Source: an uncultured bacterium (lineage in GTDB: Bacteria; Patescibacteriota; Gracilibacteria; UBA1369; PNNO01). From it: a stretch of DNA of 32,000 nt. The DNA is taken from the NCBI GenBank assembly GCA_963704705.1, contig OY969931.1, forward strand, positions 600,001 to 632,000. The letters run 5' to 3'. The translations under genes were made by a program, and so were the position numbers. Positions 1-19,802 of this stretch are shown in pieces (position 1 is the stretch's first letter; each line of letters starts with the position of its first letter). The notes under the pieces were generated by a model that did no database searches, had not been told where the DNA came from, and worked only from the letters and a program-made list of their open reading frames with translations.

Positions 1-861
1 ACCAAAACCAGATGGGAGGACGAGAACGACCCCAAGGTCGTCTACAGCGGTCATCGGATCTTTATGCTCGCGCAGCGAAAGCGCGACATCAACAATGGCC
101 GCGGGTTCCCGATGACGATCACGACGAGTCAGAAGACCTTCCACCTGCGGATCTTCGTCATCCCGAGCGTTTCCATGGCCGGTCAGGCCGATCGCAATGC
201 TCGGGTCATCAACGAATGGAACAAGAGCCAGGCTTTGCTGGCCAAGCGTGTGGTCGCAAACGAGAAGCGAAGCATCAATGCCCGAAGGGCTGATGTGGAG
301 CTCTCGCTTTACGGCTTCTTCGCCGGCGAGACTCCGGGACATCCGGGTGGTGGTATGGGCATCTCGTCCAACATCATCCTTGGCAAGTTCGCGAAGGACG
401 TGGTGCAGCTCGGCTTGAGCCCGCACATCTCTTTCATGCGCTACCAGCTCCAGATCGAGGGGCTTCCCCCTGACGGAGCGCTGAACCGCGACATGAACTC
501 GACTGAATGGGACTTTGGTCTCAGTTTTCTCCTTCGTATCCAGCCCTTCAAGTACTTGTACTTCGATGGGAAACTGGGCTTCTCCCTGCGTGTCGTTGAC
601 AACAGCGACGCCATGACCTGGCAGGAGGACTACCCCACCTACCAGATCTACGGGATCAACGGCAGCACCGCCAAGATGGCGGTGCTCAACTGGAGCATCG
701 GTATCTACTTCCCGGTAGCACGGAACTTCGCTTTCGGAGTGTCCTACATGGGCACCGTATCCCTGACGAAGCAGGCCTGTGTGCTCAGTGCAACCACTGA
801 CCACAACATGTGCAATTCCTTCAACCACAGCGGCGCGGTCGAAATCCGCGCACGCTTCTAG
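1..861 (+). CDS. Outer-membrane beta-barrel-like protein, 3' part (5' end lies outside the window)
   Basis: Frame 1 is open from nt 1, so the Met at 64 is internal. Beta-strand-like alternating segments are present (KLGFSLRVV, MAVLNWSIGIYFPV, FAFGVSYMGTVSL). The protein ends ...GAVEIRARF-stop (TAG 859-861), an aromatic C-terminus typical of OMP beta-signals. Codon usage is GC-rich. No family was recognised. Confidence 0.45.
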   Translation, partial: TKTRWEDENDPKVVYSGHRIFMLAQRKRDINNGRGFPMTITTSQKTFHLRIFVIPSVSMAGQADRNARVINEWNKSQALLAKRVVANEKRSINARRADVELSLYGFFAGETPGHPGGGMGISSNIILGKFAKDVVQLGLSPHISFMRYQLQIEGLPPDGALNRDMNSTEWDFGLSFLLRIQPFKYLYFDGKLGFSLRVVDNSDAMTWQEDYPTYQIYGINGSTAKMAVLNWSIGIYFPVARNFAFGVSYMGTVSLTKQACVLSATTDHNMCNSFNHSGAVEIRARF

Positions 862-886
862 AACACGAACGAGAGGAGAAGAGACC

Positions 887-3800
887 ATGAAACGTAACTG
901 TATCATGGCCCTGGCCACGGCATTGATCGTGGCCACGGGCTGCAACCCAAGCGGTCTGGAGCATCAGTGCTTCGAGGGGAGCTGCGGACAGGACAGCGGC
1001 GTCGTGGTTCAACCCGACGCCAACGTCAACAACAACAACGACGGCTCGACGGTGCACCCCGACACCGGAGTGATCGTGCCCCACTGCGGGGACAATCACT
1101 GCGATCCGGGGGAGACCGCCAACGACTGCCCTCAGGACTGCGAATCAGTCTGTGGGAACGGCGTGATCGAACCCAACGAGCAGTGCGACGACGGCAACTC
1201 CGATCCCGGCGATGGCTGCAGCCCGTCCTGCGAGGACGAGTATTGTGGCGACGGGATCATCCAGGTGGAACTGGATGAGGAGTGCGACGACGGCAACACG
1301 GCCTCCGGCGACGGCTGCGACACCAACTGTATCCTCGAGTACTGCGGCGACGGCGTGATTCAGATCACGCTGGGCGAGCAGTGCGACGACGGCAACGTCG
1401 TCTCCAACGACGGGTGCAGCGCTACCTGCCAGGTGGAGCAGCCGCTTTGCGGCAATCACACCCTGAATCCCGGCGAGGAATGCGACGACGGCAACACGGC
1501 CTCCGGCGACGGATGCAGCGCAAGCTGTATCCGTGAGTTCTGCGGCGACGGTGTGCTACAAGTCAGCCTCGGCGAGGAGTGCGATGATGGCAACATCATC
1601 AACGGAGACACCTGCAACGCCAGCTGCCAGGTCGAATTCTGCGGCGATAACATCGCTCAGGTCGGCCTCGGTGAGGAATGCGACGACGGCAACAACGTCG
1701 ACGGAGACGGGTGCGATTCCAACTGCTTGCTCGAGACGCCGACCCTTTGCGGGGACGGCAATCTCGACCTCGGTGAGCAGTGTGACGACGGCAACACGAC
1801 CCCCGGCGACGGCTGCACTGCCTTCTGTCAGCTCGAGTTCTGCGGTGACGGTGTCACCCAGATCGGCCTGGGAGAGCAGTGCGACGACGCCAACATCGTG
1901 TCCGGCGACGGCTGCAGCGCCACCTGCCAGGTGGAGAGCTGCGGCGACGGCATCATCCAGGTCGGCCTGGGAGAGCAGTGCGACGATGGGAATCTGATTC
2001 CCGGCGACGGCTGTTCTCCGTCCTGCCGCATCGAGAGCTGCGGCGACGGCATCATTCAGGTTGGCATGGGTGAGCAGTGTGACGATGGCAACGCCGTCAA
2101 CGGAGACGGCTGCAACACCAGCTGCCAGCTGGAGTACTGCGGCGACGGCGTCCAACAGCTGCTCCTCGGAGAGCAGTGCGATGACGGCAACAACCTCTCC
2201 AACGATGGGTGCAGCGCCACCTGCCAGATCGAGGTCCCGCCGCTTTGCGGCGACGGGACCCTCGACATCGGAGAACAGTGCGACGACGGCAACAACGTAT
2301 CCGGCGACGGGTGCAACGCTGCCTGTGTTCGCGAGTTCTGCGGTGACGGAGTCGTGCAGGTTTCCCTCGGGGAACAGTGCGACGACGGCAACAATTCAAA
2401 CGGTGACGGTTGTACCGCGTACTGCCGAACCGAGTTCTGCGGTGATCACATCACCCAGATCGGCCTCGGGGAACAGTGCGACGACGGCAACAACGTCGAC
2501 GGCGACGGGTGCGATTCCAGCTGTATGCTGGAAGATCCCGCTCTCTGTGGCAACGGCACCGTGGATCCGGGTGAGGGGTGCGATGACGGTAATACCGTAT
2601 CGGGCGATGGCTGCAGCGCAGGCTGTGTCATCGAACGGTGCAGCGATGGCGTGCTGCAGCCCACCCTGGGCGAGCAGTGCGACGACGGCAACCTCACCAA
2701 CGGTGACGGGTGCAGCAGCACCTGTCAGATCGAACGCTGCGGCGACGGCATCATTCAGGTCTTCCTCGGGGAGCAGTGTGATGACGGTAACCTTGTGAAC
2801 GGTGATGGCTGCAGCGCCTTCTGCGCTCTGGAGAACCCTCCTCTGTGCGGAAATCACGTTTTGGAAGCCGGAGAGCAGTGCGACGACGGCAACAACGTGA
2901 ACGGCGACGGCTGTACCGCCACCTGCCAGAAAGAGTACTGCGGCGACGGGAGCGTACAGACGCTTCTGGGCGAGCAGTGCGACGACGGCAATCTCAACAA
3001 CGGAGACGGCTGCAGCGCCGCCTGCCGCATGGAATACTGCGGCGACAACAAGATCCAGCTGCTCCTCGGTGAGCAGTGTGACGACGGTAACAACGTCGAT
3101 GGAGATGGGTGTGACTCCAACTGTATGTTGGAGGAGCCCTACCTCTGCGGCAACGGGACCGTGGATCCGGGTGAGGAGTGCGACGACGGCAACACCGTAT
3201 CGGGCGATGGCTGCAGCGCAGGCTGCGTGCTCGAGCGGTGCAGCGACGGCGTGCTCCAGCCCACCCTTGGTGAGGAGTGCGACGACGGCAACCTGTCCGA
3301 CGGAGACGGGTGCTCCTCCACCTGCCACAGGGAATACTGTGGCGACGGCGTCTATCAGCTCCTCCTTGGGGAGCAGTGCGACGACGGCAACAACATTTCA
3401 GGTGACGGTTGCAGCGCCAGCTGCCTGTTGGAAGACCCGCCGGTCTGCGGCGACGGGGTTTTGAACCCCGGCGAGACGTGTGACGACGGCAACACCATCA
3501 GCGGCGACGGCTGCTCCTCCACCTGCCAGCTCGAGTTCTGCGGTGACGGCATCGTGAATTCGGGCCTTACCGAGCAGTGCGACGATGGCAATCACACTTC
3601 CGGCGACGGCTGTAGCGCTGCTTGCCGCATTGAGATGTGCGGCGACAACATCACGCAGGCCTCCCTCGGGGAGACATGCGACGATGGCAACGTAGCGGAC
3701 GGCGACGGCTGCAGCGCGATCTGCCAGCTCGAGAACCCCGCGGCGTGCGGTAACGGCCAGATGGATCCGGGCGAGAAGTGCGACGATGGCAACACCATCA

Positions 3801-5149
3801 GCGGCGACGGCTGCTCCGCTTCCTGCCAGAACGAGTTCTGTGGTGACGGCGTCACCCAGACCCAACTGGGCGAGCAGTGCGACGATGGGAACGCCTCGAG
3901 CGGTGACGGCTGCTCCGCAGCATGTCAGAACGAGCGCTGCGGTGACGGCGTCGTACAGCCCAATATGGGCGAGGAGTGCGACGACGGCAACGTGGTCGAC
4001 GGTGATGGCTGCAGTGCATTCTGCAGTCTCGAGAATCCCGCGGTGTGCGGCGATGGGGTCATCAACCCCGGCGAGCAGTGCGACGACGGGAACAACGTGA
4101 GCGGCGACGGCTGCAACGGCAGTTGCCAGGTGGAGTACTGCGGCGACGGATCCGTGCAAGCGGGACTGGGCGAGCAGTGCGACGATGGCAACGTGGCCAA
4201 CGGCGACGGTTGCAGCGCCTCCTGCCGCATCGAGAGATGCGGCGATCACATCATCCAGCCTTCCCTCGGGGAGGAGTGTGATGACGGGAACGTGGCCAAC
4301 GGCGACGGGTGTGATTCCAGCTGCCAGCTGGAAGCGCCCGCTTTCTGTGGCAACGGGACCCTGGATTCGGGAGAGGGTTGTGACGATGGAAATACCGTAT
4401 CCGGTGACGGGTGCAGCTCCGGCTGTGTCCCTGAGGGCTGCGGTGACCATGTGCTTCAGCCGTCCCTCGGCGAGGAGTGCGACGACGGCAACCTTTCCAA
4501 TGGCGATGGCTGCAACGCAGCCTGCCAGCGCGAGTACTGCGGCGACGGCGTGATCCAGCATCTGCTGGGCGAGGAGTGCGATGACGGTAACAACATCAAC
4601 GGTGATGGCTGTGACAACAGCTGCCATCTCAGCACTCCTGCTGTGTGCGGCAACGGGGTTTTGAACCCCGGTGAGCAGTGCGACGACGGAAACAACGTGG
4701 CCGGCGACGGCTGCAACGCCTTCTGTCAGCGCGAAATCTGCGGTGACGGCATCGTACAACCCGCTCTCGGTGAGCAGTGCGATGACGGCAACGTGGGCAA
4801 CGGTGACGGCTGTAGTGCTTCGTGCAAGATCGAGTACTGCGGCGACACGGCGCACCCCCTGCTCGGTGAACAGTGCGACGACGGCAACGTGATCAACGGC
4901 GACGGCTGCGATTCCAACTGCATGTTGGAGGCACCGGCCGCCTGCGGTAACGGCACCGTGGATCCGGGTGAGGAGTGCGATGACAACAACACCGTATCCG
5001 GCGACGGGTGCAGCTCGGGCTGTACCCTGGAGGGATGCGGAGACCATATCACTCAGGCCTCCTTGGCGAGGAGTGCGACGACGGCAACGCGGTCAGTGGC
5101 GACGGGTGCAGCAGCACCTGCCAACGCGAGTACTGCGGCGACGGCGTGA
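887..5149 (+). CDS. Giant cysteine-rich-repeat lipoprotein, fragment 1 of 4 (repeat units 1-39)
   Basis: AGGAG at 874-878 lies 8 nt upstream of ATG 887. N-terminus is [18 protein letters not shown]|C (signal peptide plus lipobox Cys), followed by an Asn-run linker ([10 protein letters not shown]). Then come 39 tandem units [14 protein letters not shown]...GDGC...C..E. The authentic frame is lost at ~5063-5066, so the last ~28 codons up to TGA 5147-5149 are out of frame. The ORF-track start at 779 overlaps the upstream gene and is not favoured. Confidence 0.8.
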
Positions 5150-7030
5150 CGCAACTCACCCTTGGTGAACAGTGCGACGACGGTAACAGCGTGAACGGCG
5201 ATGGCTGCAACGCCTTCTGCAAGATCGAAATCCCGCCCATGTGCGGCGACGGCATCCTGCAGACTGGTGAGCAGTGCGACGACGGTAACAACGTTTCCGG
5301 AGACGGCTGCAACGCGGGTTGCGTGAAGGAGTTCTGCGGCGACGGCGTGCAGCAACCCGGCTTGGGTGAGCAGTGTGATGACGGTAACGCGACCAGCGGC
5401 GACGGGTGTTCCGCCGCCTGCAGGCGCGAAATCGTGGCGATAACGTCGTTCAGCTCGGCCTCGGCGAGCAGTGCGACGACGGCAACAACGTTTCGGGTGA
5501 CGGCTGCGACGCCACCTGCCAGTTCGAGGTCCAGCCCACGTGCGGAAACGGCGTGACTGACCCCAACGAGCAGTGCGACGACAGCAACAACCTGAACGGT
5601 GATGGCTGCAGCGCCGGTTGTCTCTTGGAGTACTGTGGCGACGGCGTTCTCCAGCCCCTCATGGGCGAAGAGTGCGACGACAGCAACACCTCCTCGGGCG
5701 ACGGATGCTCAGCGACCTGCCGTATCGAACGCTGCGGAGACGGCGTCGTGCAGGCTTCCCTCGGGGAGCAGTGCGACGACGGCAACGTGGTGAATGGTGA
5801 TGGTTGCAGCGCAGGCTGCAACCTCGAGAATCCGGCAGTTTGCGGCGATGGCGCCGTGGATGCCGGGGAGCAGTGCGACGATGGGAACAACATTCCCGGA
5901 GACGGCTGCAATGCAACCTGCCAGAAGGAGTACTGCGGCGATGGTTCCGTGCAAGCGGGCCTGGGCGAGCAGTGCGACGATGGCAACAACTTTAGCGGTG
6001 ATGGCTGCTCCGCAGCCTGCCGAATCGAATACTGCGGAGACGGTATCAGTCAGGTGCCCATGGGAGAGGAGTGCGACGATGGCAACATCGTCTCCGGAGA
6101 CGGCTGCTCCTCTTCCTGCCACTTGGAGATTCCGGCACTCTGCGGCGACGGCAACGTGGACCCCGGTGAGCAGTGCGACGACGGGGACAGCGTTTCCGGC
6201 GACGGCTGTAGCGCCGGTTGCCTCCTGGAGTATTGCGGTGACGGCGTCATGCAGGCTTCCCTTGGGGAGCAGTGCGACGACGGCAACGCATCCAGCAACG
6301 ACGGGTGCAGCGCTACCTGCCAGATCGAACGGTGTGGTGACGGCACTGTCCAGGTTTTCCTGGGCGAACAGTGCGATGACGGGAATCTCGTCAACGGCGA
6401 CGGGTGCAATGCCAGCTGCCAGTTGGAGGCTCCGTCGATGTGCGGCAACCACACCATCGACCCCGGTGAGCAGTGCGACGACGGAAACAACGTTTCCGGT
6501 GACGGCTGCAACGCCACCTGTCAGCGCGAATTCTGTGGGGACGGGCTCACGCAGCCCGGACTCATGGAGGAGTGCGATGACGGCAATGTCTCCAATGGAG
6601 ACGGCTGTTCCGCCAGTTGCCGCCTCGAGTATTGCGGGGATGGCGTCATTCAGGTGCTGCTCGGTGAGCAGTGCGACGACGCCAACTTCGTGAACAACGA
6701 CGGCTGCAACAACAACTGTCGGCTCAGCGCTCCGCACATCTGCGGAAACGGGGTCATCAACCCCGGCGAGCAGTGCGACGATGGCAACATCATTTCCGGA
6801 GACCTCTGTAGCTCTTCCTGTATGGTGGAGTACTGCGGCGACCATATCACCCAGGTTGGTCTGGGTGAGGAGTGTGACGATGGCAACATCGTCAACGGTG
6901 ACGGCTGCAGCAGCAACTGCCTGCGGGAGTACTGCGGTGACGGTGTCATTCAAGTGCTGCTCGGTGAGCAGTGCGATGATGGCAACATCGTCTCCGGGGA
7001 CGGATGTTCATCCATCTGTCGTGTAGAAAA
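1151..7030 (+). repeat. Coding tandem array: 59 units of ~99-102 nt (33-34 aa, 6 Cys each), with higher-order 300-nt and 600-nt periodicity
   Basis: Hand count of the C-D-D-[GASN]-[ND] cores gives 59. Pro-containing linkers (E.P..C) follow units 3, 6, 11, 14, 17 ... 59, giving an exact 3-unit period from unit 12 onward. Segments 2521-2700 and 3121-3300 show 24 mismatches in 180 nt at an exact 600-nt offset. Confidence 0.9.
5008..5556 (+). CDS. Giant cysteine-rich-repeat protein, fragment 2 of 4 (units 40-43)
   Basis: The repeat consensus ([27 protein letters not shown]...) resumes in this frame at ~5065 and is lost again at 5433/5434. Sequence before 5065 and after 5434 in this ORF is out-of-frame read-through. 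There is no independent start context. Confidence 0.6.
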
Positions 7031-7037
7031 CCCTTAG
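5406..7037 (+). CDS. Giant cysteine-rich-repeat protein, fragment 3 of 4 (units 44-59)
   Basis: The repeat consensus resumes at ~5436 ([17 protein letters not shown]...) and runs in frame to ...CRVENP, with TAG at 7035-7037. The first ~10 codons of the ORF are out-of-frame overlap with fragment 2. Confidence 0.75.
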
Positions 7038-7990
7038 AAGGCCCCACTGGACCAAGCTGCTCCGACGGCGTCGACAACGACGGCGACGGACTGGTGGACT
7101 GCAACGACCCAGGCTGCGCAGGCGATCCCGCCTGCGCAGTCCCGGGGGTTGAGGTCTGCTCCGGTGGGGTAGACGAGGATGGCGACGGTCTTGTGGACTG
7201 TGCCGACCCCGACTGCTCGAATTCCCCCTTATGTCCCGAGAACTGCACCAACGGTATCGACGATGATGCCGATGGTCTCGTGGATTGCAACGATACAGAG
7301 TGCGCGGCTCATCCCGCGTGCGTTGGTCCCACCACAGAAATCTGCAACGACGGGCTCGACAACGACGGTGACGGTCTTGCAGATTGCCTCGATCCGGACT
7401 GCGTGGCTCATCCCGCGTGTGCTCCGGGCGTTGAGATCTGCAATAACCTCACCGACGACGATGGTGATGGCAGGGTCGATTGCCAGGATCCAAATTGCTG
7501 GGCTACCGCCTTCTGCATCGGTGTTACGGAGAACTGCTCCGATGGCATCGACAACGACGGCGACGGCAAAACCGACTGCGAGGATGATAAGTGCAGCGGC
7601 CGTCTCGGCGGCAACGGCACCATCTGTGCATATGGTCGGCGGCAGGAACTCCTGTGCAACGACGGCATCGATAACGATGGCGACGGCCTGATCGATTGCC
7701 TCGATCCCGACTGCTCTCTTGATCCCGTTTGTGGTTTTACCACAACGGAGAACTGCGAGGGTGGTGGTGACGAGGACGGCGACGGCCAAGCCGATTGTGT
7801 CGATAGCGATTGCCGGAACCATCCACGGTGTATGGTCTGGAACACTGCAAGAACCGGAACTACAGGAACTTTGTGTCCCACAGACACTTCCGGAACCTGC
7901 GCTACTGGTATTCTAAGTGCTCCAGATTACGACAACGTAAAGTGGTGTCGACCCATCAACCCGGTCTGCTATACGGACTACGTGAAGTAG
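7004..7990 (+). CDS. DNDGDG-repeat / Cys-rich C-terminal domain protein; probably the C-terminal domain (fragment 4) of the giant gene
   Basis: Contains 8 units of C.DG.DNDGDG..DC.DPDC....C, then a C-terminal module ...[13 protein letters not shown]...[14 protein letters not shown]-stop (TAG 7988-7990). There is no signal peptide and no SD of its own. The ORF overlaps the stop of fragment 3, and adding one nt at 7031-7033 fuses it in frame ([23 protein letters not shown]). Confidence 0.7.
7058..7813 (+). repeat. Coding tandem array: 8 Cys-bracketed DxDxDG (DNDGDG) units, GC-rich codons
   Basis: The eight units are [140 protein letters not shown] and [20 protein letters not shown]. Confidence 0.85.
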
Positions 7991-8026
7991 CCGGTCCATC
8001 CGCAACTAATTGTTCAACCTTATAAA

Positions 8027-8056
8027 GGCGGGCTCACATATGTGAACCCGCCTTTT
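8027..8056 (+). terminator. Rho-independent terminator after the giant gene, at the GC-rich/AT-rich boundary
   Basis: GGCGGGCTCACA-TA-TGTGAACCCGCC forms a 12-bp stem with one mismatch, followed by TTTT. It lies 37 nt after the stop at 7990. Confidence 0.7.
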
Positions 8057-8131
8057 CCCCATATAAAAAATTTGCTTTTATGTAATTAATTTGGTATCAA
8101 TGCGTTCTATATATTGGAAATGATTTTGTGC

Positions 8132-8159
8132 TTGACAAGTTTGTCGAATAATGTAAAAT
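8132..8159 (+). promoter_or_regulatory. Sigma70-type promoter for the 8189 gene
   Basis: TTGACA (8132-8137), a 16-nt spacer ending in TG, then TAAAAT (8154-8159), i.e. an extended -10. It lies ~30 nt upstream of ATG 8189. Confidence 0.55.
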
Positions 8160-8188
8160 AACATCTAAAATTCTTAATACCTTATAAT

Positions 8189-9586
8189 ATGTCAAAATTA
8201 GATAGAAATACGGAAAATTTAGAAAAGCGCTTTCAAAAGCCTAAATTTTATTTAAATCCCAATTCAATTTGGGGTAAAATTGCACGTCCGATTACATTAG
8301 CTGTTGGTTTAGTTCTTGCTGGAGGAGTAGCTGCTTGTAAATTTGACGTAGGTGGATTCGCTCCACCTGATCGTCCGGATTCAAGACCATTAGACGACGG
8401 AAGTTTTGATGCAGGAACAGATGCTGGTGATGCTGGTCCAACTGATGAAATTTGTAATGATGGAATCGATAATGATCAGGATGGGAAAATAGACTGCGCT
8501 GATGAAGATTGTTTAGGGAATCCTTCTTGTCCTGAAATTTGTGATGATGAAGTTGATAATGACGGAGACGGGAAAATTGATTGTGCTGATAGTGATTGTG
8601 TTGGTCATCAGGGAAGTGGAGGTTTATGCGAACAAGCTGAAACCAATTGTGCAGATGGATTTGATAATGATGCAAATGGATTAATAGATTGTGCAGATAC
8701 TGCTCACTGCGGCGGAAGTCCTGATTGTGGTGAAACTGTATGTAATGATGGCATCGATAATGATAATGACGGTAAAACTGACTGCGCTGATAGTGAATGC
8801 GTTGGCCAAACCGGTCAAAATGGAGAAATTTGCGAAGCAACTGAAGTAACTTGTGATGATGGTTTTGATAATGATGGTGACGGCCAATCAGACTGTGATG
8901 ATCCTGATTGTTTAAATACAGCAGCTTGCGGAGAATCTACATGCAATGACGGTATAGATAATGATAATGACGGTAAAACTGACTGCGCAGATAGTGAATG
9001 TGTGGGGCAACTTGGACCAAATGGAGAAACATGTGAATTAACTGAAGTTTCTTGTGCTGATGGTCAAGATAATGATGGTGATGGACTTATAGATTGTGAA
9101 GACCCAGATTGTTTTAGCGCTTCATGTTCTGAAGTATGTGATGACGGACAGGATCATGATAATGATGGTTTAGTTGGATGTGCAGACCCTGATTGTACGG
9201 GCTTCACCGATGGTTTAACAATGTGTGCATACGGGCAAGAATGGGAAACCGATTGTACAGATGGTGTAGATAACGATGGCAATGGATACACAGACTGTGA
9301 TGATATTGCATGTTCAATAACTGCCGCATGTGGTGCGGTTGTTGAAGATTGTACAAGTTTTACTGCTGATGTTAATGGAGATGGTTTACAAAAATGTGAA
9401 GATGTAACATGTTTATTCGATCTGGATTGTATAGATTGGCCTCGTTCATGTTCAGGTTCTGCTGGATCTATATGTCCTACACAGCAATCCGGTACTTGTG
9501 CAACTGGAACATGTTCTGAAGGAGCCACTTATAATGGTCAGACTCTGCCAAAAGTTTGTAGCCCTATAGATCAATCTTGTTACTAA
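8189..9586 (+). CDS. Membrane-anchored/lipoprotein DNDGDG-repeat protein; low-GC counterpart of the 7004-7990 domain
   Basis: A 33-aa polar N-terminus precedes [15 protein letters not shown]|C (TM segment or lipobox). Ten units of C.DG.DND.DG..DC.D..C follow. The C-terminal module [13 protein letters not shown]...CSPIDQSCY-stop matches the end of the GC-rich ORF. Codons are AT-rich (tgt, gat, aat, ggt). Confidence 0.85.
8453..9412 (+). repeat. Coding tandem array: 10 Cys-bracketed DxDxDG units, AT-rich codons
   Basis: Examples include [60 protein letters not shown] (twice), [20 protein letters not shown] and [20 protein letters not shown]. Confidence 0.8.
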
Positions 9587-9805
9587 AAAGAATACGAATA
9601 ATTTAATATATCCTAGTTTTTGGTCTGATTTAATATAATCGGACATATCATTAATTGATATTGTTATCGATTGTTATCGGATCAAATGTCCATTGAAAAC
9701 CTGCTTAAAGCTTATGATGAGCCTTGTTTTGCTAAAAAAAATTTTTGGCAGGACAGGGTTCATCAACTTTTAGAAAAACACACCGAAAACACGGAGGAAA
9801 GTCTC

Positions 9806-10471
9806 ATGCAGAAGATCGCGATGATGATGTGTGTCGTTGCCCTGACGTTCGTTGCCTGCAACGAGCACCCCGGGGAGTACAGCGATGCGAACAACAACAA
9901 CGAGCCCGCTGTGAATAACAACAACAGCGGCACCAACGACAACAACTGCTGCGATGTGCAGCCCACCTTCACGGCCTGGTCGACAGACATGCTCGCGACC
10001 TGGGTCCAGAAGCAGGACGGATCCGTGGAATTGGGGGCTGTGCTCACGCCTGAGTCGTGCGATGGGGAACGAGCAAGGTACGATTACTACGTGACTTCGC
10101 GTCCCATGGTCTTCCTGTTCTCGGCTTCGACTGATTTGACGATTCAGTCGACAATCCCCCTGGAGGCCTACATCGTCAACCAGAACCCCGATGACCCCTG
10201 GTCGTTCTGGGTCATGGAGTTCGAGATCAAGGAGTTTTATGGGCTGGATCCGTTCTGGCACATCAAGCGTTTTCCCACATCCATGAGCCAAGCCGAGGGC
10301 TTCAAGTACTCGGCGAGCGCGTTCATCTGCGGTAAGCAGATCGATGCCATCAACTTGGGATGCTGGAACGTGTTCGAGGATGCGTTCTTCGAGCCGGCCG
10401 GCAATCAGCGCAACTATTACTTCGAGGAGGACGAGTTCGGAGAAATCTTCGTACTCATCGTAGTTCGGTAG
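9806..10471 (+). CDS. Small GC-rich lipoprotein of unknown function (221 aa)
   Basis: GGAGGA at 9793-9798 lies 7 nt upstream of ATG 9806. N-terminus is MQKIAMMMCVVALTFVA|C (signal plus lipobox), followed by Asn-run linkers (DANNNNEPAVNNNNSG) like that of the giant protein. G+C is ~52-58%. The frame is also open upstream to 9659 (ATG 9686, TTG 9671) in AT-rich DNA, giving an alternative long start. No family was recognised. Confidence 0.7.
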   Translation: MQKIAMMMCVVALTFVACNEHPGEYSDANNNNEPAVNNNNSGTNDNNCCDVQPTFTAWSTDMLATWVQKQDGSVELGAVLTPESCDGERARYDYYVTSRPMVFLFSASTDLTIQSTIPLEAYIVNQNPDDPWSFWVMEFEIKEFYGLDPFWHIKRFPTSMSQAEGFKYSASAFICGKQIDAINLGCWNVFEDAFFEPAGNQRNYYFEEDEFGEIFVLIVVR

Positions 10472-10545
10472 GGATTGGGGTCTCTCTGAAGCATCTTCCC
10501 TCCCTCCCAGTCCATACATGCTTCTTTGAGACCCTTTGTTTTCCA

Positions 10546-10608
10546 GGGTTTGAGAGTCGGCTGGCAGCGTAAAAAACTGCCGGCCGCTCTCAAGCCCGAC
10601 TTGTTTTT
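10546..10608 (+). terminator. Long GC-rich hairpin plus T-run closing the second GC-rich block
   Basis: GGGTTTGAGAGTCGGCTGGCAG-(CGTAAAAAA)-CTGCCGGCCGCTCTCAAGCCC forms an imperfect stem of ~20 bp, followed by GACTTGTTTTTCT. It also lies just downstream of the convergent pfkB-like gene. Confidence 0.6.
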
Positions 10609-10643
10609 CTAAAAATACAAAGCTTTAAGTAGGTTTTTCTTTT

Positions 10644-11591
10644 TTATAGAGGTTCACCAAAGTTTTTTTCGAATCTTTTTGCGAATTCTTTCATTTTGAA
10701 ATTATGGCTTTGCGTACCGCTGTTTTCAATTACAAAAGCGCTAACTAAAGCACCAACCTTACATGATTTAACATGGTCATAACCTTTAATTATTCCTGAA
10801 AGCAGGCCGGCCCTGAATGCGTCTCCGCAACCTGTGGGGTCAGCTATTTGTGTTGGTTTAGCGATAGGAATGTGATGTTCTTCGCTGCCTTCTCTTAAAA
10901 TTGAACCCTTTTCGCCCTTTGTTTCAATAAAAAAGTGAACATTATTAACAATATCATCAATATTGTAATTTAATCTTTTACATAAAAGTTCGGTTTCGTA
11001 GTGATTGGCAATATAACCAAATGCATTTTTAAGCAAAAACCTTAGATCATCCAGATCAAAAGCAGGTGTCATCTGTCCTGGATCAAAAATATAAGGAATT
11101 TCCGCTTCTTTAAGTCTATGTGCAAGTTTTACAGTTCTCTTACAAATATCCGGTGATAAAATAGCTATTTCAATATCCAATAAATCAACTTCTGTAAGTT
11201 CTACTTCATCTTCAATACTTTCCATAGCACCCGGAGCAAAAAAAGTGATTTGGTTTTCTTTATCATCAGTCAAAAGATAAGCAGTAGCAGTAAACTGATC
11301 TCTTGCTTTGCCTATATGTTTTATTGAAATTTTGTTCTTTTTAAGCCATTTTTCGTAATCTATAAAATCCATTCCAGATACTCCGTATAAAAGTGGATTA
11401 ACATCCAGCATTTTTAGGCTGTAAGCGATATTTCCGCCACAACCACCAAAATGCACAACTTTATCACGTGCAGTAAATGCTATATTTAAATGATCAAGAT
11501 GTTCTTTAAGCAAAGCATCACTAAAAACACCTTTGTAGCGCATAATATAATCGTATGCAATAGAGCCACTAACAAAGATTTTACTTCTCAT
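10644..11591 (-). CDS. PfkB-family carbohydrate/nucleoside kinase
   Basis: 315 aa. It has an N-terminal GG motif (FGGCGGNIAYSL) and the PfkB signature DPTGCGDAFRAG near the C-terminus. The substrate cannot be assigned. Confidence 0.85.
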   Translation of the reverse strand: MRSKIFVSGSIAYDYIMRYKGVFSDALLKEHLDHLNIAFTARDKVVHFGGCGGNIAYSLKMLDVNPLLYGVSGMDFIDYEKWLKKNKISIKHIGKARDQFTATAYLLTDDKENQITFFAPGAMESIEDEVELTEVDLLDIEIAILSPDICKRTVKLAHRLKEAEIPYIFDPGQMTPAFDLDDLRFLLKNAFGYIANHYETELLCKRLNYNIDDIVNNVHFFIETKGEKGSILREGSEEHHIPIAKPTQIADPTGCGDAFRAGLLSGIIKGYDHVKSCKVGALVSAFVIENSGTQSHNFKMKEFAKRFEKNFGEPL

Positions 11592-11598
11592 ATTAGAA

Positions 11599-12393
11599 TT
11601 ATTTAGTTGGAATTGGGGTATCTGAATATTTAGGCATTTTTTCTTTTAAATCCTGCTGTTTGCGGCCTTCATAATTTTGTTCAATATGAATATCGCGCGC
11701 AATAACACCTGCTCTGAATAAACTTTCAAAAGTTCCGGCATCAGTCCATCTCTTTTTTAAAACAGTTGCTGTTAACTGTGCTTTTTGAATGTAGGCGTTA
11801 TTTACATCAGTAATTTCATATTCACCTCTGTTTGAAGGTGACAGTCCCGAAATTATATCAAAAACCTGATTGTCATATAAATATAAACCTGTTACAGCAT
11901 AGTTTGATTTTGGTTGTTTAGGTTTTTCTTCAATTCCAACTACTTTTTTGCCTTTTAATTCAGCAACTCCAAATCTAAATGAATCTTCAAGTTCTTTAAT
12001 AAAAATATGGGCACCTTTTTGATTTTCGAATTCTTTAATATGTTTACTTAAGTTTTCTTCAAAGACATTGTCACCTAAAATAACTGCGAAATTGTCTTCT
12101 CCTACAAAGTTTTTAACAAGACCTACTGCATGCGCAATGCCTTCAGCTTTTTCTTGTACTCTAAATTGCAAATTGCATCCATATTGTTTGCCGTCTCCGA
12201 GTAATTGTAAAAATGAACCTGCGTGTTTAGGGCCTGACACAATTAAAATATCTCTTATCCCTGCCTGGGTTAGTGTTTGCAGAGGATGAAAAATCATTGG
12301 TTTGTTGTAGATAGGAAGTAAATGTTTGTTTGTTACTTCGGTAAGTGGTTTTAAACGATTTCCCTGTCCTCCTGCGAGAATTACACCTTTCAT
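11599..12393 (-). CDS. rmlA: Glucose-1-phosphate thymidylyltransferase-like sugar nucleotidyltransferase
   Basis: 264 aa. The N-terminus MKGVILAGGQGNRLKPLT..NKHLLPIYNKPMI is the G-x-G-x-R-L nucleotidyltransferase motif of the RmlA family. It lies in a cluster with rmlB and rmlD. Confidence 0.8.
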   Translation of the reverse strand: MKGVILAGGQGNRLKPLTEVTNKHLLPIYNKPMIFHPLQTLTQAGIRDILIVSGPKHAGSFLQLLGDGKQYGCNLQFRVQEKAEGIAHAVGLVKNFVGEDNFAVILGDNVFEENLSKHIKEFENQKGAHIFIKELEDSFRFGVAELKGKKVVGIEEKPKQPKSNYAVTGLYLYDNQVFDIISGLSPSNRGEYEITDVNNAYIQKAQLTATVLKKRWTDAGTFESLFRAGVIARDIHIEQNYEGRKQQDLKEKMPKYSDTPIPTK

Positions 12394-12395
12394 TT

Positions 12396-13229
12396 TTATA
12401 TTTTATTAAGATAATCTTTTAGAGCTTCTTCATGTGATCTTAAGTGGGGCAGTTTTGTATTGTGCAGAATTGAAATCTGCGGTCTTTTTGCCGGCCGGTT
12501 GAGCTCTCCTGAATTAATGCTCACTAAGTCTACCCCAGTTAAATTTTTTAAATCAAATATTTTTTTTGCAAATTCATACCACGAAGTGCTATTTTCGTTT
12601 ACCAGATGGTAAATTCCGCTTGAATAGCCCGTTTTCACAAAATCCAAAATTCCATTTGCAAGATCAACAGTATATGTTGGTTTACCAAATTGGTCGTTCA
12701 CAACCTGAATTTGACGACCTTCATCAGCGAGTTTTAGCATTGTTTTTACAAAGTTCTGTCCATGCATTCCAAATAGCCATGAAGTTCTGATAATAAAAAA
12801 ATTATCTGTATTTTCCTGAATCATTTTTTCTCCCAGAAGCTTTGATTCACCGTATGTATTAATAGGGGAGGTAACATCATCTTCTTTGTATCCTTCCTTT
12901 TTGGTACCGTCAAAAACATAATCTGTACTAAAATACATTAAATTGGCATCAATTTCTTTGCATTTTTCAGCTAAAAATTTGTTTGCGTAGCCATTTACCT
13001 GCATAACGAAATTCTGCTTTGCTTCACATTCATCAACATAAGTAAATCCGGCAGCGTTTATAACCAAATTTGGCCTAAAATCATTTAAAATCTGCCATAC
13101 AGATTCTTCATTTGTTATATCTAGTTCATCTCGGCTCGTTGAATAGAAATCAAATTCTTTGGATTCTTTAAATACAGAATTAATTTCAGTGCCCAGTAGC
13201 CCGTTTTTACCTATTAAAAGGATTTTCAT
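12396..13229 (-). CDS. rmlD: dTDP-4-dehydrorhamnose reductase
   Basis: Has the MKILLIGKNGLLG Rossmann start plus STDYVFDG and YGESKLLGE (the Y-x3-K catalytic pair). The ORF track extends to 13253, but that start overlaps proS by 14 nt, so ATG 13229 is favoured. Confidence 0.85.
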   Translation of the reverse strand: MKILLIGKNGLLGTEINSVFKESKEFDFYSTSRDELDITNEESVWQILNDFRPNLVINAAGFTYVDECEAKQNFVMQVNGYANKFLAEKCKEIDANLMYFSTDYVFDGTKKEGYKEDDVTSPINTYGESKLLGEKMIQENTDNFFIIRTSWLFGMHGQNFVKTMLKLADEGRQIQVVNDQFGKPTYTVDLANGILDFVKTGYSSGIYHLVNENSTSWYEFAKKIFDLKNLTGVDLVSINSGELNRPAKRPQISILHNTKLPHLRSHEEALKDYLNKI

Positions 13230-13239
13230 CAGACACGAG

Positions 13240-14946
13240 TTAATTGTTGGCAAATTTTTTAATTTCGTTAATTAATTTATCTATTTTAACATTTTTAGCT
13301 TCTTTTTCAGTTCGCTCTTTCCATTCAACACTGTTTTCAGCAATTGTTCTTTTGCTGATTACAATTCTAAGTGGCAATCCAATCAAATCAGCATCATTTA
13401 ATTTAAGTCCAGGACTGGCATCACGATCATCAAAAAGAACTTCAATATTCTCATTATTCATATTTTCATAAAGTTTCTGCGCAATAGTCTGCACCTCGTC
13501 ATCTTCGCCAATTGTAATCAAATACACCAAGTAAGGAGCAATGGTTTTTGGCCAGATTATTCCTTTATCATCATGTGATGCTTCTACGATTGTTCCTAAA
13601 AGCCTTGTTGAACCGATTCCATAACAACCCATAATAACGGGCTTTTTCTTGCCATCCTGATCAGTGAAGCTAAGATCAAAATCATCACTGTATCGTGTGC
13701 CGAGTTTAAAAATATTACCTGCTTCAACAGCTTTTTCTTCTTCAAGCTGAGTATCACATTTAGGACACATAAATCCGCCTTTAACCTCAACGAAATCAGC
13801 AAAATCTTTAACTTCAAAATCACGGCCTATATTTATATTTTTCCAGTCTTTATTTAATTCATTTGCGCCAGATTCGAAATTTTTCATTTCTTTAATAGAA
13901 AAATCACCAATAAATGAGATTTTGTTATTTGGCTTGCCATCAGCCAAAACAGGGGATATAAATCCTTCGACAAGCCCTAATTGTTTAAGCTCTTCAGATG
14001 TAGCTATTCTGACATGTTTTTTAAAATATCTTTCTAATTTTTCAAGATTCACATTAAAGTCTCCACGTATTAAAATAGCGACAGGACCTTCATCTTCAAC
14101 CATATAAACTACTGATTTTAAAATTCGAAATTCATCGATTTCAAGTTTTTTAGCTGCATCTTTGATTGTTTTATCCCGTTCAATATCTATCAATTCGCGT
14201 TTTTTCTCTTTTTCATCTGATGTAGGATTATCGTATTTGCCTTCTGCAATTTCCAGATTTTGTGCAAATTTACATTTAGGACAGTAAATCATTGTATCTT
14301 CACCTGCATCGGTTTTTATTGAGAATTCATGTGAAATTTTATCTGTAAAAGCTCCACCCGAAGCTTCAATAATATAAGCATCCAATCCACATCTCGAATA
14401 AACATTTAAGTATGCTTCAATAACTTTATTGTAATATTCATCTAAGTCTTCTTCTGAAGTGTGAAAACTGTACATGTCTTTCATCCCAAATTCGCGTCCT
14501 CTTAATAATCCTGATTTTGCGCGTGGTTCGTTGCGAAATTTGGTTTGTAACTGATAAACGCATAAAGGCAGATCTTTATAACTTTGAATTTGTTTTTTTG
14601 CCAAAGGTGTTACTGTTTCTTCATGACTTGGCCCTAAAACAAAGTCTTTTTCACCTGATTTTAATCTATATAAAACATCAAATGTATTTATTCTGCCTGT
14701 TGTTTCCCATAATTCAACTGGTTGAAGTGCAGGCATTAATATTTCCTGCGCGCCAACAGCATTCATTTCTTCACGAATAATTGTGTTGATTTTATGCATC
14801 GATCGCATTCCAAGCGGAAGATAGTTGTAAATTCCAGCTGCAACTTTATCTATAAATCCTGCTTTAGTTAAAAGCTCAGCATTTATACTGTTAGAATCAT
14901 GTGGAGTTTCATGTTTAGTACGCCCGAAAAATTTAGAATATCGCAT
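13240..14946 (-). CDS. proS: Prolyl-tRNA synthetase (bacterial type, with insertion domain)
   Basis: 568 aa. The N-terminus MRYSKFFGRT.KE.P.D....S..LL.KAGFI......GIY..LPLG is characteristic of ProRS. Class II motifs and a C-terminal anticodon-binding region are present. Confidence 0.95.
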   Translation of the reverse strand: MRYSKFFGRTKHETPHDSNSINAELLTKAGFIDKVAAGIYNYLPLGMRSMHKINTIIREEMNAVGAQEILMPALQPVELWETTGRINTFDVLYRLKSGEKDFVLGPSHEETVTPLAKKQIQSYKDLPLCVYQLQTKFRNEPRAKSGLLRGREFGMKDMYSFHTSEEDLDEYYNKVIEAYLNVYSRCGLDAYIIEASGGAFTDKISHEFSIKTDAGEDTMIYCPKCKFAQNLEIAEGKYDNPTSDEKEKKRELIDIERDKTIKDAAKKLEIDEFRILKSVVYMVEDEGPVAILIRGDFNVNLEKLERYFKKHVRIATSEELKQLGLVEGFISPVLADGKPNNKISFIGDFSIKEMKNFESGANELNKDWKNINIGRDFEVKDFADFVEVKGGFMCPKCDTQLEEEKAVEAGNIFKLGTRYSDDFDLSFTDQDGKKKPVIMGCYGIGSTRLLGTIVEASHDDKGIIWPKTIAPYLVYLITIGEDDEVQTIAQKLYENMNNENIEVLFDDRDASPGLKLNDADLIGLPLRIVISKRTIAENSVEWKERTEKEAKNVKIDKLINEIKKFANN

Positions 14947-14959
14947 CTTTTAGGTTAAA

Positions 14960-15997: not shown

Positions 15998-16063
15998 AAG
16001 ATACGAACGTTAGTGAGTATCTGGCGAGCAAAAACTTATTGCGAGCCATAGCGTGAGCCCCGC

Positions 16064-16462
16064 TTAGCGGGGTGAACTCAGTTTCAAGAATTTATCGAAA
16101 TCTCTTACATAATCAGATGGGTCGTAATTAGTTGACGACACTGCCAGTAGAATAGCATCTTCTGAAAAATCTGTGAACTCATGCCATATCATATTATCTA
16201 CATAAATTGCATTATCAGGACCTTTTAGCTTATGTTCCTGCCAATCTTTGCCATCATGCACTCTCGCGGTAATTTCACCGCGCGGACAAATAAAAAGTTC
16301 TTTTTCAGTTCTGTGCGCATGACCTCCTCTTGTTTCTTTGTTATTAAATGCATAATAAACACGCTTTGGTTCCCAATCTATATAATCCTTAAGTTCAATA
16401 GGAACCAGTTGACCGCGTTCATCAGTAAATAGAGGAAGATTGTAAGTTTGAATTTTGTTCAT
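16064..16462 (-). CDS. FdtA/WxcM-like cupin (putative dTDP-4-keto-6-deoxyhexose 3,4-ketoisomerase)
   Basis: 132 aa. The pattern F.DERG.L...E......KR.YY......RGGHAH....ELFIC..G matches, from memory, the FdtA/WxcM-like domain rather than the ~180-aa RmlC epimerase. Confidence 0.65.
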   Translation of the reverse strand: MNKIQTYNLPLFTDERGQLVPIELKDYIDWEPKRVYYAFNNKETRGGHAHRTEKELFICPRGEITARVHDGKDWQEHKLKGPDNAIYVDNMIWHEFTDFSEDAILLAVSSTNYDPSDYVRDFDKFLKLSSPR

Positions 16463-16465
16463 GAT

Positions 16466-18556: not shown

Positions 18557-18624
18557 ACGAAAAAAGCTTTAGTTAGCTTAAATGCGAGTGTTAGTTTACG
18601 TGCAAAAGCTTTAAAAGTAAAGGT

Positions 18625-19713: not shown

Positions 19714-19767
19714 AATATTTAACTTAATTAGAAATCTATAATAATGGAAAAATCATTAAAAAAGTAC

Positions 19768-19796: not shown

Positions 19797-19802
19797 ATAG
19801 GT

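Follow-up and report, generated by a model that had tools for sequence, protein, structure and literature searches.

Two GC-rich blocks of secreted-protein genes, probably long resident, in an AT-rich marine Peribacteria genome

Genes and base composition of the locus

The window, i.e. the whole stretch of DNA analysed, comprises 32,000 nt of contig OY969931.1 (positions 600,001 to 632,000) from the genome of an uncultured marine Peribacteria bacterium (CPR; 1.37 Mb, ~33 % GC). Two GC-rich blocks were observed in it (Table 1). Block I would be one operon: a gene for a secreted barrel-like protein is followed by one for a giant DUF4215 lipoprotein and then by a double-disulfide module, which would be reached through a -1 frame junction conserved among relatives. 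Block II consists of a lone small lipoprotein gene. An AT-rich paralogue of the module, which separates the blocks and is read in the same direction, stands outside the GC excess.

Table 1 Features of the locus, with coordinates within the window
Feature	Position	Strand	Evidence or remark
Barrel-like gene, 3' part (286 codons) of 382-aa secreted protein (P0006)	1..861	+	GC3 0.80
Giant lipoprotein gene, >50 DUF4215 repeats (Myxococcus-type Cys-rich)	887..7037	+	Pfam PF13948 E 2e-212, 6e-93; GC3 0.77-0.80
Conserved -1 frame junction A_AAC_CCT_TAG	7028..7037	+	motif comparison among relatives
Acidic double-disulfide repeat module, 8 repeats and unique Cys-rich tail, -1 frame	7034..7990	+	NF033662 E 4e-81; GC3 0.64 (likewise over 7004-7990)
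Block I inverted repeat, right arm ATCCGCAACTAATTGTT	7998..8014		left arm upstream of window
Intrinsic-terminator hairpin, end of block I operon	8024..8055	+	dG -21 kcal/mol, z -6.0 vs shuffles; palindrome I1
Sigma-70-like promoter TTGACA-16-TAAAAT (11/12), before AT-rich paralogue	8132..8159	+	sequence match
Native-codon lipoprotein, 8 acidic double-disulfide repeats	8189..9586	+	NF033662 E 4e-72; GC3 0.167
Block II inverted repeat, left arm AAAACCTGCTTAAAGCTT	9696..9713		repeat comparison among relatives
Conserved 5'-UTR hairpin of small lipoprotein gene	9715..9765	+	consensus fold, 7 lineages
Small lipoprotein gene, 221 aa, MQKIAMMMCVVALTFVAC	9806..10471	+	GC3 0.81
Strong terminator hairpin and U-tract, small lipoprotein gene	10546..10597	+	dG -40.9 kcal/mol, z -6.1
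Block II inverted repeat, right arm AAGCTTTAAGTAGGTTTT	10620..10637		6 nt from pfkB stop codon
pfkB-family kinase	10644..11591	-	first backbone gene; synteny anchor for relatives

When GC was profiled in sliding windows, values of 0.56-0.66 (1-8000), 0.35-0.41 (8000-9800), 0.54-0.575 (9800-10600) and 0.28-0.41 (10.6 kb onward) were obtained, with ~40 % GC for the gene between the blocks and 30-38 % for the backbone. Together with GC3 per gene, they bear out the abrupt GC blocks in a low-GC backbone described in the initial annotation, whose backbone gene names (infB, proS, S1/rpsA, ClpC-type and RuvB) were also correct. The contrast lies almost wholly in third codon positions (GC3 0.64-0.81 vs 0.17-0.28, with 0.19-0.28 for 14 backbone genes), with only small differences in GC1 and GC2 between island and backbone genes. 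Composition changes in intergenic DNA, at gene boundaries; the GC excess is limited to coding sequences, and promoters, leaders and spacers are AT-rich. In L019, one of the related lineages (designated here by L numbers), GC rises where the barrel-like ORF begins, at its start codon, upstream of which lies a 516-nt AT-rich spacer with near-consensus promoters. The codons of the island genes look foreign for every amino acid: preferences are opposite throughout (A3 0.06; TTA, ATA and AGA ~0), and usage resembles that of a ~60-65 % GC genome.

The barrel-like protein has an N-terminal signal peptide (coded outside the window) and ends in ...VEIRARF. Its family is tiny and confined to the lineage (only 19 representatives among 1.84 billion proteins), and the protein gave no match in Pfam/NCBIfam, outer-membrane-protein families included. 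In the AF2 model (pLDDT 42), the C-terminal ~170 aa are predicted to form long beta hairpins, and the model is too poor to name a barrel fold. Of the surface-protein locus proposed earlier, the secreted or surface character holds (signal-peptide protein ending in ...IRARF, giant DUF4215 lipoprotein and small lipoprotein), and the barrel call is not supported.

The giant gene, which has a lipobox at its N-terminus, occupies four frames in the window. It is broken by two 1-nt deletions near 5065 and 5433 (located against L017), and the L017 orthologue is a single intact ORF of 1981 aa (dN 0.031 and dS 0.32 between the two). The two breaks could represent decay in this genome. Internal repeats characterise the giant gene; neither the barrel-like gene nor the small lipoprotein gene is repetitive. 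DUF4215 is commonest in GC-rich Myxococcota, and DUF4215 genes elsewhere match their own genomes in composition (L026 ~48 % GC, L027 ~62 %).

The DUF4215 array is joined to the double-disulfide module at the -1 junction (C_CCU_UAR): the 0 frame ends at TAG, and the -1 frame reads CCC TTA GAA... into the module, which has no signal peptide of its own. The motif CCCTTA(G/A), placed identically relative to the two frames, was found in the window, L017/L018, L020/L021, L003 and L002; folding tests gave no significant stimulatory structure downstream of it. Against L017 the module has a dN/dS of 0.14, and its orthologues have GC3 of 0.72 (L002) and 0.61 (L003). The lipoprotein gene at 8189-9586 is a paralogue of this C-terminal module of the giant gene. 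The C-terminal tail is common to both (BLASTP 35-41 % identity, E 4e-52), and the orthologues of 8189-9586 have GC3 of 0.14-0.25 in all lineages.

In block II, the small lipoprotein gene is preceded by a Shine-Dalgarno sequence (GGAGGA, 9793-9798). Its product had no family match in Pfam/NCBIfam-type domain scans, and the orthologues share 24-90 % amino acid identity with GC3 of 0.57-0.86. The 5'-UTR hairpin contains 23 pairs in 7 lineages, 4 of them with compensatory changes, and is read as a sense-strand RNA structure because it is rich in G.U (UG/GU) pairs. Both hairpins called terminators earlier fold far better than shuffles, and a counterpart of the one at 10546-10597 was found in relatives.

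Each GC-rich block is framed by a perfect inverted repeat of 14-18 bp, and the blocks therefore behave as delimited cassettes. The block I repeat forms a perfect 17-bp pair in L019 (9752-9768 with 18080-18096); its right arm is present in the window, L017, L018, L020 and L021, and its left arm in L019, L023 and L024, with a variant form in L025. The block II arms co-vary between lineages. No tRNA was found in the window and no integrase or transposase domain among the ORFs scanned, as the initial annotation had stated. It had sought only direct flanking repeats; short perfect inverted repeats do flank both blocks. The analysis yielded no insertion mechanism, and the conserved inverted repeats at the edges of both blocks are now added to the description.

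Conservation and codon composition among relatives

The GC/AT/GC/AT mosaic lies beside pfkB with the same gene order and orientation in at least eight related lineages (L003, L004, L005, L017/L019, L020-L024, L025, L028 and the single-cell genome L002), with no more than ~60 kb around the locus covered per genome. Orthologues of the small lipoprotein, the AT-rich paralogue and the GC-rich repeat module keep their order even where PfkB is only 53-79 % identical. The lipoprotein identity matrix recovers the backbone clades (Spearman 0.64-0.86), and the GC-rich small lipoprotein gene has co-diverged with the backbone.

When the window was compared with L002, L003 and L005, the four-fold sites of the backbone were near saturation (identity 0.34-0.48; random expectation 0.28-0.38), and GC4 of the island genes stayed at 0.56-0.80. 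As repeated substitution has overwritten the synonymous sites of the backbone while the island stays GC-rich, a gene-specific force appears to hold the codon composition against AT-biased mutation. The dN/dS values of island genes are 0.1-0.4, and these genes appear to be functional. Against the close relative L017, dS is 0.32-0.47 for three genes with GC3 ~0.8 vs 0.57-1.47 for the backbone; the lower island dS could come partly from gene flow among the three closest lineages. In pooled counts, the per-site W>S rate of the island is ~2x that of the backbone and the S>W rate ~two-thirds. Parsimony-polarised island changes comprise 78 S>W vs 31 W>S (pooled), such counts being biased at skewed composition, and given this S>W excess the island GC may be slowly decaying. 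The most distant lineages, L004 and L005, have lower GC3 (0.57-0.63).

Comparison with known systems

Acquired genomic islands with atypical base composition, which reportedly follow the amelioration model of Lawrence and Ochman, resemble the blocks in their sharp composition steps, reversed codon usage and surface or secreted cargo. However, the position and order of the blocks are conserved across deep lineages and co-diverge with the backbone, and integrase, tRNA and direct repeats are lacking. The blocks are also unameliorated despite saturated synonymous sites, and have AT-rich promoters and leaders of native type.

Invertons include the Hin/Gin/Cin segments and the switches of Bacteroides and Clostridioides, and some of their recombinases are encoded elsewhere in the genome. 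Short perfect inverted repeats around a surface-protein unit, with arms evolving in concert, are common to them and to the blocks. Here, however, none of about a dozen assemblies showed a flipped segment, the window encodes no recombinase, the sequences of the two brackets are unrelated, and whole gene(s) or an 8-kb operon are enclosed instead of a promoter. The long-range processing stems that flank rRNA operons are similar in that a GC-richer transcribed segment of an AT-rich genome has co-varying complementary flanks. In our case, the segments are protein-coding and under purifying selection, the block II right arm sits past the small lipoprotein gene's own terminator, and G.U pairs are almost absent from the arms.

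Programmed -1 ribosomal frameshifting is known from dnaX, the IS3 family, phage tail chaperones and copA. The junction resembles it in the conserved slip-prone codon adjoining a 0-frame stop and in the -1 frame that runs into a purifying-selected module without an export signal. C_CCU_UAR, however, departs from the canonical X_XXY_YYZ heptamer in some lineages and a stimulatory structure is not supported, so that the junction is a putative frameshift site. The -1 frame junction and the inverted-repeat brackets are new findings.

Ca. Peribacter riflensis encodes giant secreted Cys-rich proteins resembling Myxococcus repeats (DUF4215) together with lipoprotein machinery (Anantharaman et al. 2016, PMC4736985). 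The bacterium described here is of the same bacterial class, but those genomes are uniformly 58.5 % GC (PMC4736985), whereas genes of ~64 % GC lie here in a ~33 % GC genome. An extracellular surface repeat protein with atypical codon use, enriched in C-ending codons (GAC), has also been described in the very AT-rich genome of a Gracilibacterium, likewise a CPR member (Sieber et al. 2019, PMC6851277). There, the atypical codons belong to a single hypervariable repeat tract within a population; here, whole genes of GC3 0.8 are conserved across lineages.

Origin and maintenance of the GC-rich blocks

We consider it probable (about 0.7) that the GC-rich blocks are long resident, vertically inherited and kept GC-rich in marine Peribacteria, and are neither a recent import nor an artefact. 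A gene-specific force would maintain the GC-rich codons against the AT-biased mutation of the genome, and we infer selection on synonymous sites of the island mRNAs, e.g. on mRNA stability/structure or translation rate. The origin would be old: the blocks could have been imported from a GC-rich donor (Myxococcota-like or Peribacteria) or retained since a GC-rich ancestor. The inverted repeats are candidate sites of DNA inversion or recombination, or may serve long-range RNA pairing.

Extreme composition steps in a metagenome-derived genome could suggest a chimeric contig, with GC-rich DNA of another organism mis-joined during assembly or binning. This is already contradicted and scarcely credible: a Logan contig from ERR11571143 (independent assembler) is 100 % identical to window 8959-22393 and crosses two junctions, the same mosaic occurs in contigs from at least 10 other samples (single-cell genome included), each of the four junction types is crossed by contigs of several samples and of the single-cell genome, and the conserved inverted repeats pair DNA on either side of each block. 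We agree with the initial annotation that a single mis-join is insufficient to explain the mosaic. Its own proposal was a surface-protein locus recently imported into an accessory hot spot, with a GC-rich diderm as donor, and the island codon usage, the frequency of DUF4215 proteins in Myxococcota and a best-scoring homologue on a contig of uniformly 60-65 % GC are in its favour. Such an import is very improbable and likewise contradicted, as the mosaic is kept down to 53 % PfkB identity, island divergence (including that of the lipoprotein) is congruent with the backbone, promoters and leaders look native, and mobility genes and tRNA were not found. Since at least eight lineages, one of them represented by a single-cell genome, carry the mosaic beside pfkB, chimera and recent import are in practice excluded, and its fixed order and orientation argue against an accessory hot spot. 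The diderm donor is not supported either: the lineage-restricted barrel-like family lacks an outer-membrane-protein match and a usable model, and DUF4215 is commonest in Myxococcota, yet large Cys-rich proteins of this kind also characterise the Peribacteria as a class, with some members at 58.5 % GC (PMC4736985).

Long residence with maintained codons must also be weighed against an ancient import with later re-supply, in which recombination with GC-rich donors or among Peribacteria keeps replacing island alleles and blocks amelioration. Natural competence has been attributed to CPR bacteria, and within the three closest lineages the nearest neighbour is not the same for island genes as for backbone genes. 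Large Cys-rich proteins have been reported to vary between strains in Peribacteria (PMC4736985), which also counts for re-supply. We nevertheless regard it as unlikely, because it would need three exact stops at coding-sequence boundaries, skipping the middle AT-rich paralogue; moreover, island proteins have diverged more than backbone proteins within identical clades, and no GC-rich outside homologues were found for the barrel-like or small lipoprotein genes. Slightly less probable again is a local rise in GC at a recombination hot spot, through regional GC-biased gene conversion or some other local mutational bias. In AT-rich genomes, bacterial surface-antigen loci that vary through gene conversion can have high GC (e.g. 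Borrelia vls), and the giant gene is repetitive, but the other two GC3 ~0.8 genes lack repeats, no silent cassettes were seen at the locus, the spacers, leaders and adjoining paralogue are AT-rich within 10 kb on the same strand, and non-coding DNA between the brackets is largely as AT-rich as the genome average. Somewhat less unlikely than these is a relic of a GC-rich ancestor (like Ca. Peribacter riflensis, 58.5 % GC), from which the backbone drifted towards AT while island genes alone retained the earlier composition. Large Cys-rich extracellular proteins are indeed encoded by some GC-rich Peribacteria (PMC4736985), and the island gene families are confined to the lineage or class; the paralogue, however, did turn AT-rich. 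As a gene-specific maintaining force is still required, the relic is a variant of the origin step of long residence and not an alternative to it.

Composition and genes of the locus

The locus consists of ancient, conserved surface-protein cassettes which are bracketed by inverted repeats and keep GC-rich codons in an AT-rich CPR genome. When G+C content was calculated in sliding windows, values of 0.56-0.66 were observed at 1-8000, 0.35-0.41 at 8000-9800, 0.54-0.575 at 9800-10600 and 0.28-0.41 beyond. GC at third codon positions (GC3) was 0.80 in the barrel-like gene, 0.77-0.79 in the giant gene, 0.64 in 7004-7990 and 0.81 in 9806-10471, and it was 0.167 in 8189-9586 and 0.19-0.28 in 14 backbone genes. 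The sliding windows confirm the four compositional segments of the initial annotation, which had also named the backbone genes correctly; the two hairpins that it called terminators both fold far better than shuffled sequences. GC1 and GC2 overlap between the GC-rich and AT-rich gene classes, and the contrast is almost entirely synonymous. The GC-rich (island) genes prefer codons opposite to those of the backbone for all amino acids, with an A3 of 0.06 and TTA, ATA and AGA almost missing. Base composition and codon usage are both atypical of the host genome, as in a genomic island.

Features of the locus (window positions, unless a contig of a related lineage, L-number, is named)
Feature	Position	Strand or frame	Description
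Barrel-like gene (protein P0006)	last 286 codons in window		signal-peptide protein of 382 aa, C-terminus ...IRARF
Giant lipoprotein gene	from ATG 887		>50 DUF4215 repeats
Third frame change of giant gene	7028-7037		A_AAC_CCT_TAG; C_CCU_UAR junction from repeat array to acidic double-disulfide module
C_CCU_UAR junction in relatives	L017 7220-7229; L020 771-780; L003 ~14224-14233; L002 ~15024-15033	- in L003 and L002	
Repeat module	7034-7990	-1 frame	acidic double-disulfide repeats, NF033662
Block I arms	L019 9752-9768 and 18080-18096		GACAATTAGTTGCGGAT and its complement; perfect 17-bp pair, 8.3-kb operon
Block I right arm in window	7998-8014		between stop codon and terminator
Paralogue	8189-9586		AT-rich lipoprotein gene between the blocks
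Block II arms	9696-9713 and 10620-10637		complementary at 17/18 positions
5' UTR hairpin of small lipoprotein gene	9715-9765		~23 bp, directly after left arm
Block II, small lipoprotein gene	9806-10471		single 221-aa lipoprotein, no known family
pfkB	10644-11591	-	
Leader of barrel-like gene	L019 9750-10000; L023 3064-3327; L025 1-246		~230 nt upstream, conserved
Promoter/hairpin unit	L019 9577-9700; L023 2891-3014		near-consensus TTGACA-17-TATACT; ~70 nt on, small GC hairpin and T-tract
Long antisense ORFs	7229-7822; 9770-10519; 3398-5047; L017 7417-8010	- for first two	in GC-rich blocks
rmuC homologue	18625-19713	-	
UvrD/PcrA-type helicase	20307-23084	-	fused to C-terminal PD-(D/E)XK (Cas4-like) nuclease domain, AddA-like architecture
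600-aa ORF	23180-24982	+	no Pfam or NCBIfam match; sole + strand backbone gene
552-aa ORF	29150-30808	-	no Pfam match

Block I starts upstream of the window and has three coding parts. DUF4215 (PF13948, Pfam gathering threshold 27) was matched in the giant gene with 688 bits in 38 stretches and 305 bits in 16 stretches. NF033662 (NCBIfam cut-off 41) scored 266 bits in 7004-7990 and 237 bits in 8189-9586, with eight repeats in each. A unique C-terminal tail is common to 8189-9586 and 7034-7990 as well (35-41% identity, E 4e-52), and the shared repeats and tail thus identify two adjoining same-strand paralogues with opposite codon usage. A lipobox cysteine after a signal peptide was read directly from the translations of the giant (...LIVATGC), small (...LTFVAC) and paralogue (...GGVAAC) lipoproteins. 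The island genes include the giant Cys-rich surface proteins by which CPR bacteria probably attach to other cells.

The barrel-like protein found no family match in Pfam or NCBIfam. Its family has only 19 representatives among 1.84 billion proteins, a profile scan of metagenomes returned one locus only, and look-ups of the exact proteins of 8189-9586, 7004-7990 and P0006 gave no match. The terminal Phe is present, and a structure model (AF2, four-sequence alignment) shows only long C-terminal beta hairpins. The model is poor (pLDDT 42), no OMP family was matched, and the earlier call of a barrel is not established. CPR bacteria are generally considered to be without an outer membrane.

The long antisense ORFs of the GC-rich blocks are an expected by-product of GC3 near 0.8; in relatives, gene callers annotated one of 197 aa rather than the -1 frame module. 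Opposite-strand dual coding was rejected as the cause of the high GC3, as the giant gene has only an interrupted antisense frame and the barrel-like gene lacks an antisense ORF.

Conservation of the locus and of its GC-rich codons

Judged from its PfkB relatives, the backbone of the source contig (1,374,545 bp) is placed in Candidatus Peribacteria/Peregrinibacteria, within CPR/Patescibacteria. The contigs compared came from JGI metagenomes (L017, L018 and L019, and L025 from another), six further sequencing runs (L020-L024 and L028), a single-cell genome (L002) and metagenome-assembled genomes (L003-L005). A Logan contig from ERR11571143 matches window 8959-22393 with 100% identity along 13,435 bases and spans the 9.7 and 10.6 kb junctions, and every junction type is crossed by contigs from other samples. 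An assembly chimera was rejected on this assembly-level evidence, the junctions being repeated by another assembler, in other samples and in the single-cell genome.

The island was found next to pfkB in L002, L003, L004, L005, L017/L019, L020-L022 and L028, always in the order pfkB, GC-rich small lipoprotein gene, AT-rich paralogue, and GC-rich repeat module with giant gene. GC3 of the orthologues was 0.57-0.86 for the lipoprotein, 0.14-0.25 for the paralogue and 0.61-0.72 for the module, and PfkB identity to the window was 77-79% in L002-L004 and fell to 53% in L005. The lipoprotein identity matrix yields the clades of pfkB and rmlA, namely {window, L017, L020}, L003, {L002, L004} and L005 (Spearman 0.64-0.86); thus the island co-diverged with the genome. 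The recent import into an accessory hot spot that had been proposed is contradicted by the shared site, the constant gene order in all lineages compared and a lipoprotein divergence which follows the backbone. A GC-rich diderm donor is likewise unsupported, since no OMP family was matched and large Cys-rich proteins are also typical of Peribacteria.

Island and host gene histories are incongruent only locally, among the three closest lineages (L017/L019, window, L020); there island and backbone genes point to different nearest neighbours, a hint of recombination. The L017 lineage has a backbone GC at four-fold sites (GC4) of ~0.31 versus 0.21 in the window and L020, with an excess of changes from A/T to G/C (W>S) on its branch. 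At the upstream edge in L019, native tig, rplS, rnhB and a pyruvyl transferase gene (GC3 0.24-0.31) are followed by a 516-nt AT-rich spacer with promoters, and GC rises at the barrel-like gene's start codon. L006, a remoter relative, has a 40% GC genome; there pfkB itself (9947-10987) has a GC3 of 0.52, and GC climbs to 47-53% in the final 1.5 kb of the contig, which stops before an island would come into view.

When the window was compared with L002, L003 or L005, four-fold identity of the backbone was nearly random (0.34-0.48; expectation 0.28-0.38), and the island genes of both genomes compared kept a GC4 of 0.56-0.80 (0.42-0.67 for L005). Against L017, dS was 0.32 in the giant gene, 0.37 in the small lipoprotein gene and 0.47 in the barrel-like gene, with 0.57-1.47 in the backbone. 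Under the AT-biased mutation of the backbone, G/C-rich synonymous sites are expected to change faster, but slower change was seen. The island dN/dS of 0.1-0.4 against L017 indicates that these genes are functional. In three-taxon counts over pooled branches, the island rate of W>S per W site was about twice that of the backbone and the rate of S>W per S site about two-thirds. Island S>W changes still exceed W>S (78 to 31), possibly by some slow decay or by parsimony bias; at these divergences, parsimony polarisation is too biased to separate equilibrium from slow decay.

The spacers, leaders and paralogue inside the same 10 kb are AT-rich, so neither biased gene conversion nor a mutational cause acting on the whole region is likely. 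The maintaining force targets the coding sequences of particular genes, and we infer selection on synonymous sites. As to the benefit of GC-rich codons, mRNA stability or structure and translation rate are our guesses. DUF4215 genes elsewhere match their own genomes (~48% GC in L026, ~62% in L027), and GC-rich Myxococcota have the largest numbers of DUF4215 proteins. Large Cys-rich extracellular proteins of this kind are also typical of class Peribacteria, whose groundwater members have 58.5% GC (PMC4736985). The GC-rich codons may stem from an ancient import or may have been retained since a GC-rich ancestor, and both origins call for the maintaining force.

Atypical GC is routinely taken as the mark of recent horizontal transfer, a signal that should fade according to amelioration theory. 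At this locus, GC3 values of 0.8 and 0.2 have stayed apart, gene by gene, across lineages with saturated synonymous sites, with a native-codon paralogue adjoining, and composition-based island callers would therefore misdate the locus. The case calls for care in dating gene transfer by composition, and it serves as a natural experiment on the forces that can keep the synonymous sites of a tiny genome far from their mutational equilibrium.

Inverted-repeat brackets

The inverted repeats around the two blocks are a new finding. Among the window ORFs scanned for domains, none had an integrase or transposase domain, a tRNA search of the window found none, and the direct repeats in 7950-10700 were only the paralogue's own internal ones, in agreement with the initial annotation; inverted repeats occur instead. 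For block II, perfect pairs of 14-17 bp lie at the same positions in L017, L020, L003, L002, L004 and L005, and L028 has the pair there with one mismatch, so that arms of 14-18 bp are present across eight lineages. Their sequence varies by clade and complementarity is retained, with double compensatory changes in 5 of 15 pairs; 93% of cells are paired versus 30-57% with the partner slid, and none of 500 shuffles reached the covariation score. The right arm is always 6-8 nt from the pfkB stop, past the lipoprotein gene's own terminator. The left arm of block I was also found in L023 and L024, and in a variant form in L025. No bracket surrounds the paralogue, and elsewhere in the window no comparable perfect long-range repeat was found.

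By our own count, the arms contain only ~2-3 G.U-type mismatches in ~130-150 pairs. The 5' UTR hairpin at 9715-9765 is kept in L017, L020, L003, L002, L005 and L028; it has four compensatory pairs and ~22% G.U and is a sense-strand RNA structure. The scarcity of G.U in the arms relative to this hairpin favours a DNA-duplex constraint, for example at sites of recombination, of inversion or of paired protein binding; that the few mismatches, read on the sense strand, are without exception G.U points the other way. Both blocks have the flanking inverted repeats of an inverton, and inversion would give flipped junctions such as CCATTGAAAACCTGCTTAAAGCTT then TGTATTTTTAGAAAAA. At assembly level only one orientation was seen: all of about 12 assemblies share it, with no contig break at an arm, and a minority orientation may still occur. 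No site-specific recombinase was found in the 32-kb window, in which the ORFs 23180-24982 and 29150-30808 are of unassigned function. DNA inversion and long-range RNA pairing are possible explanations, each less likely than not and with about equal chances. One diffusible factor binding both block II arms on the convergent mRNAs is possible, but misfits block I because both of its arms lie on the transcript of one strand. Transposon terminal repeats with target-site duplications were rejected, as no duplication was seen by eye beside the arms, and the co-variation between the arms likewise speaks against passive relics. A diversity-generating retroelement was rejected too, as neither template/variable direct repeats nor a reverse transcriptase was seen.

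A bolder reading, at a probability of about 0.3, is that marine Peribacteria have a few surface cassettes in a GC-rich codon dialect held by selection, each controlled by a co-evolving inverted-repeat bracket. Selection would preserve the dialect over very long times in the face of AT-biased mutation, and the opposite dialect would be a regulatory or stability device setting the island genes apart from the native-codon paralogue. Control by the brackets would consist of DNA inversion, switching a cassette between flanking transcription units, or of pairing of mRNA ends. The conserved brackets, together with the frame junction (see below), suggest regulated expression of attachment proteins.

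Frame junction, leaders and backbone features

The giant gene has three -1 frame changes in the window. Compared with the intact 1981-aa L017 orthologue, two of them are 1-nt deletions, at about 5063-5068 and 5431-5436, that occur only in this genome or its assembly; they may represent true pseudogenisation, variants within the population or errors of assembly. At the third change, the motif CCCTTA(G/A) and its frame relation are kept in five lineages. The -1 frame module behind it has no export signal of its own and is under purifying selection (dN/dS 0.14 against L017). Both the conserved slip site and the constrained downstream frame of a programmed -1 frameshift were thus found, and such a shift at C_CCU (a Pro codon) beside the stop codon is the simplest reading of this candidate site. 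A stimulating structure is unsupported, the downstream hairpin having a z of -1.0 versus shuffles and one compensatory pair. Alternatively, the module could start independently at an incidental SD-ATG within the last DUF4215 repeat.

Conservation of the barrel-like gene's leader extends to L025, where the protein is only 46% identical, with the common blocks CCGGTTTTTCCGG, CTGTGAGACTG and CAGCCGGAC..GGCCGGC; it may be an undescribed cis-regulatory RNA. The promoter/hairpin unit upstream of the left arm of block I could be a small RNA gene or attenuator. When the spacers and leader were searched against Rfam, nothing reached a family gathering score, and the 9715-9765 hairpin matched no family.

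The rmuC homologue, 8 kb away from the bracketed cassettes, keeps its syntenic position in relatives. RmuC of E. coli keeps inversions at short inverted repeats in check; the proximity here is probably coincidence. The 600-aa ORF has strong positive AT and GC skew, and the helicase-nuclease fusion is a single gene adjoining rmuC.
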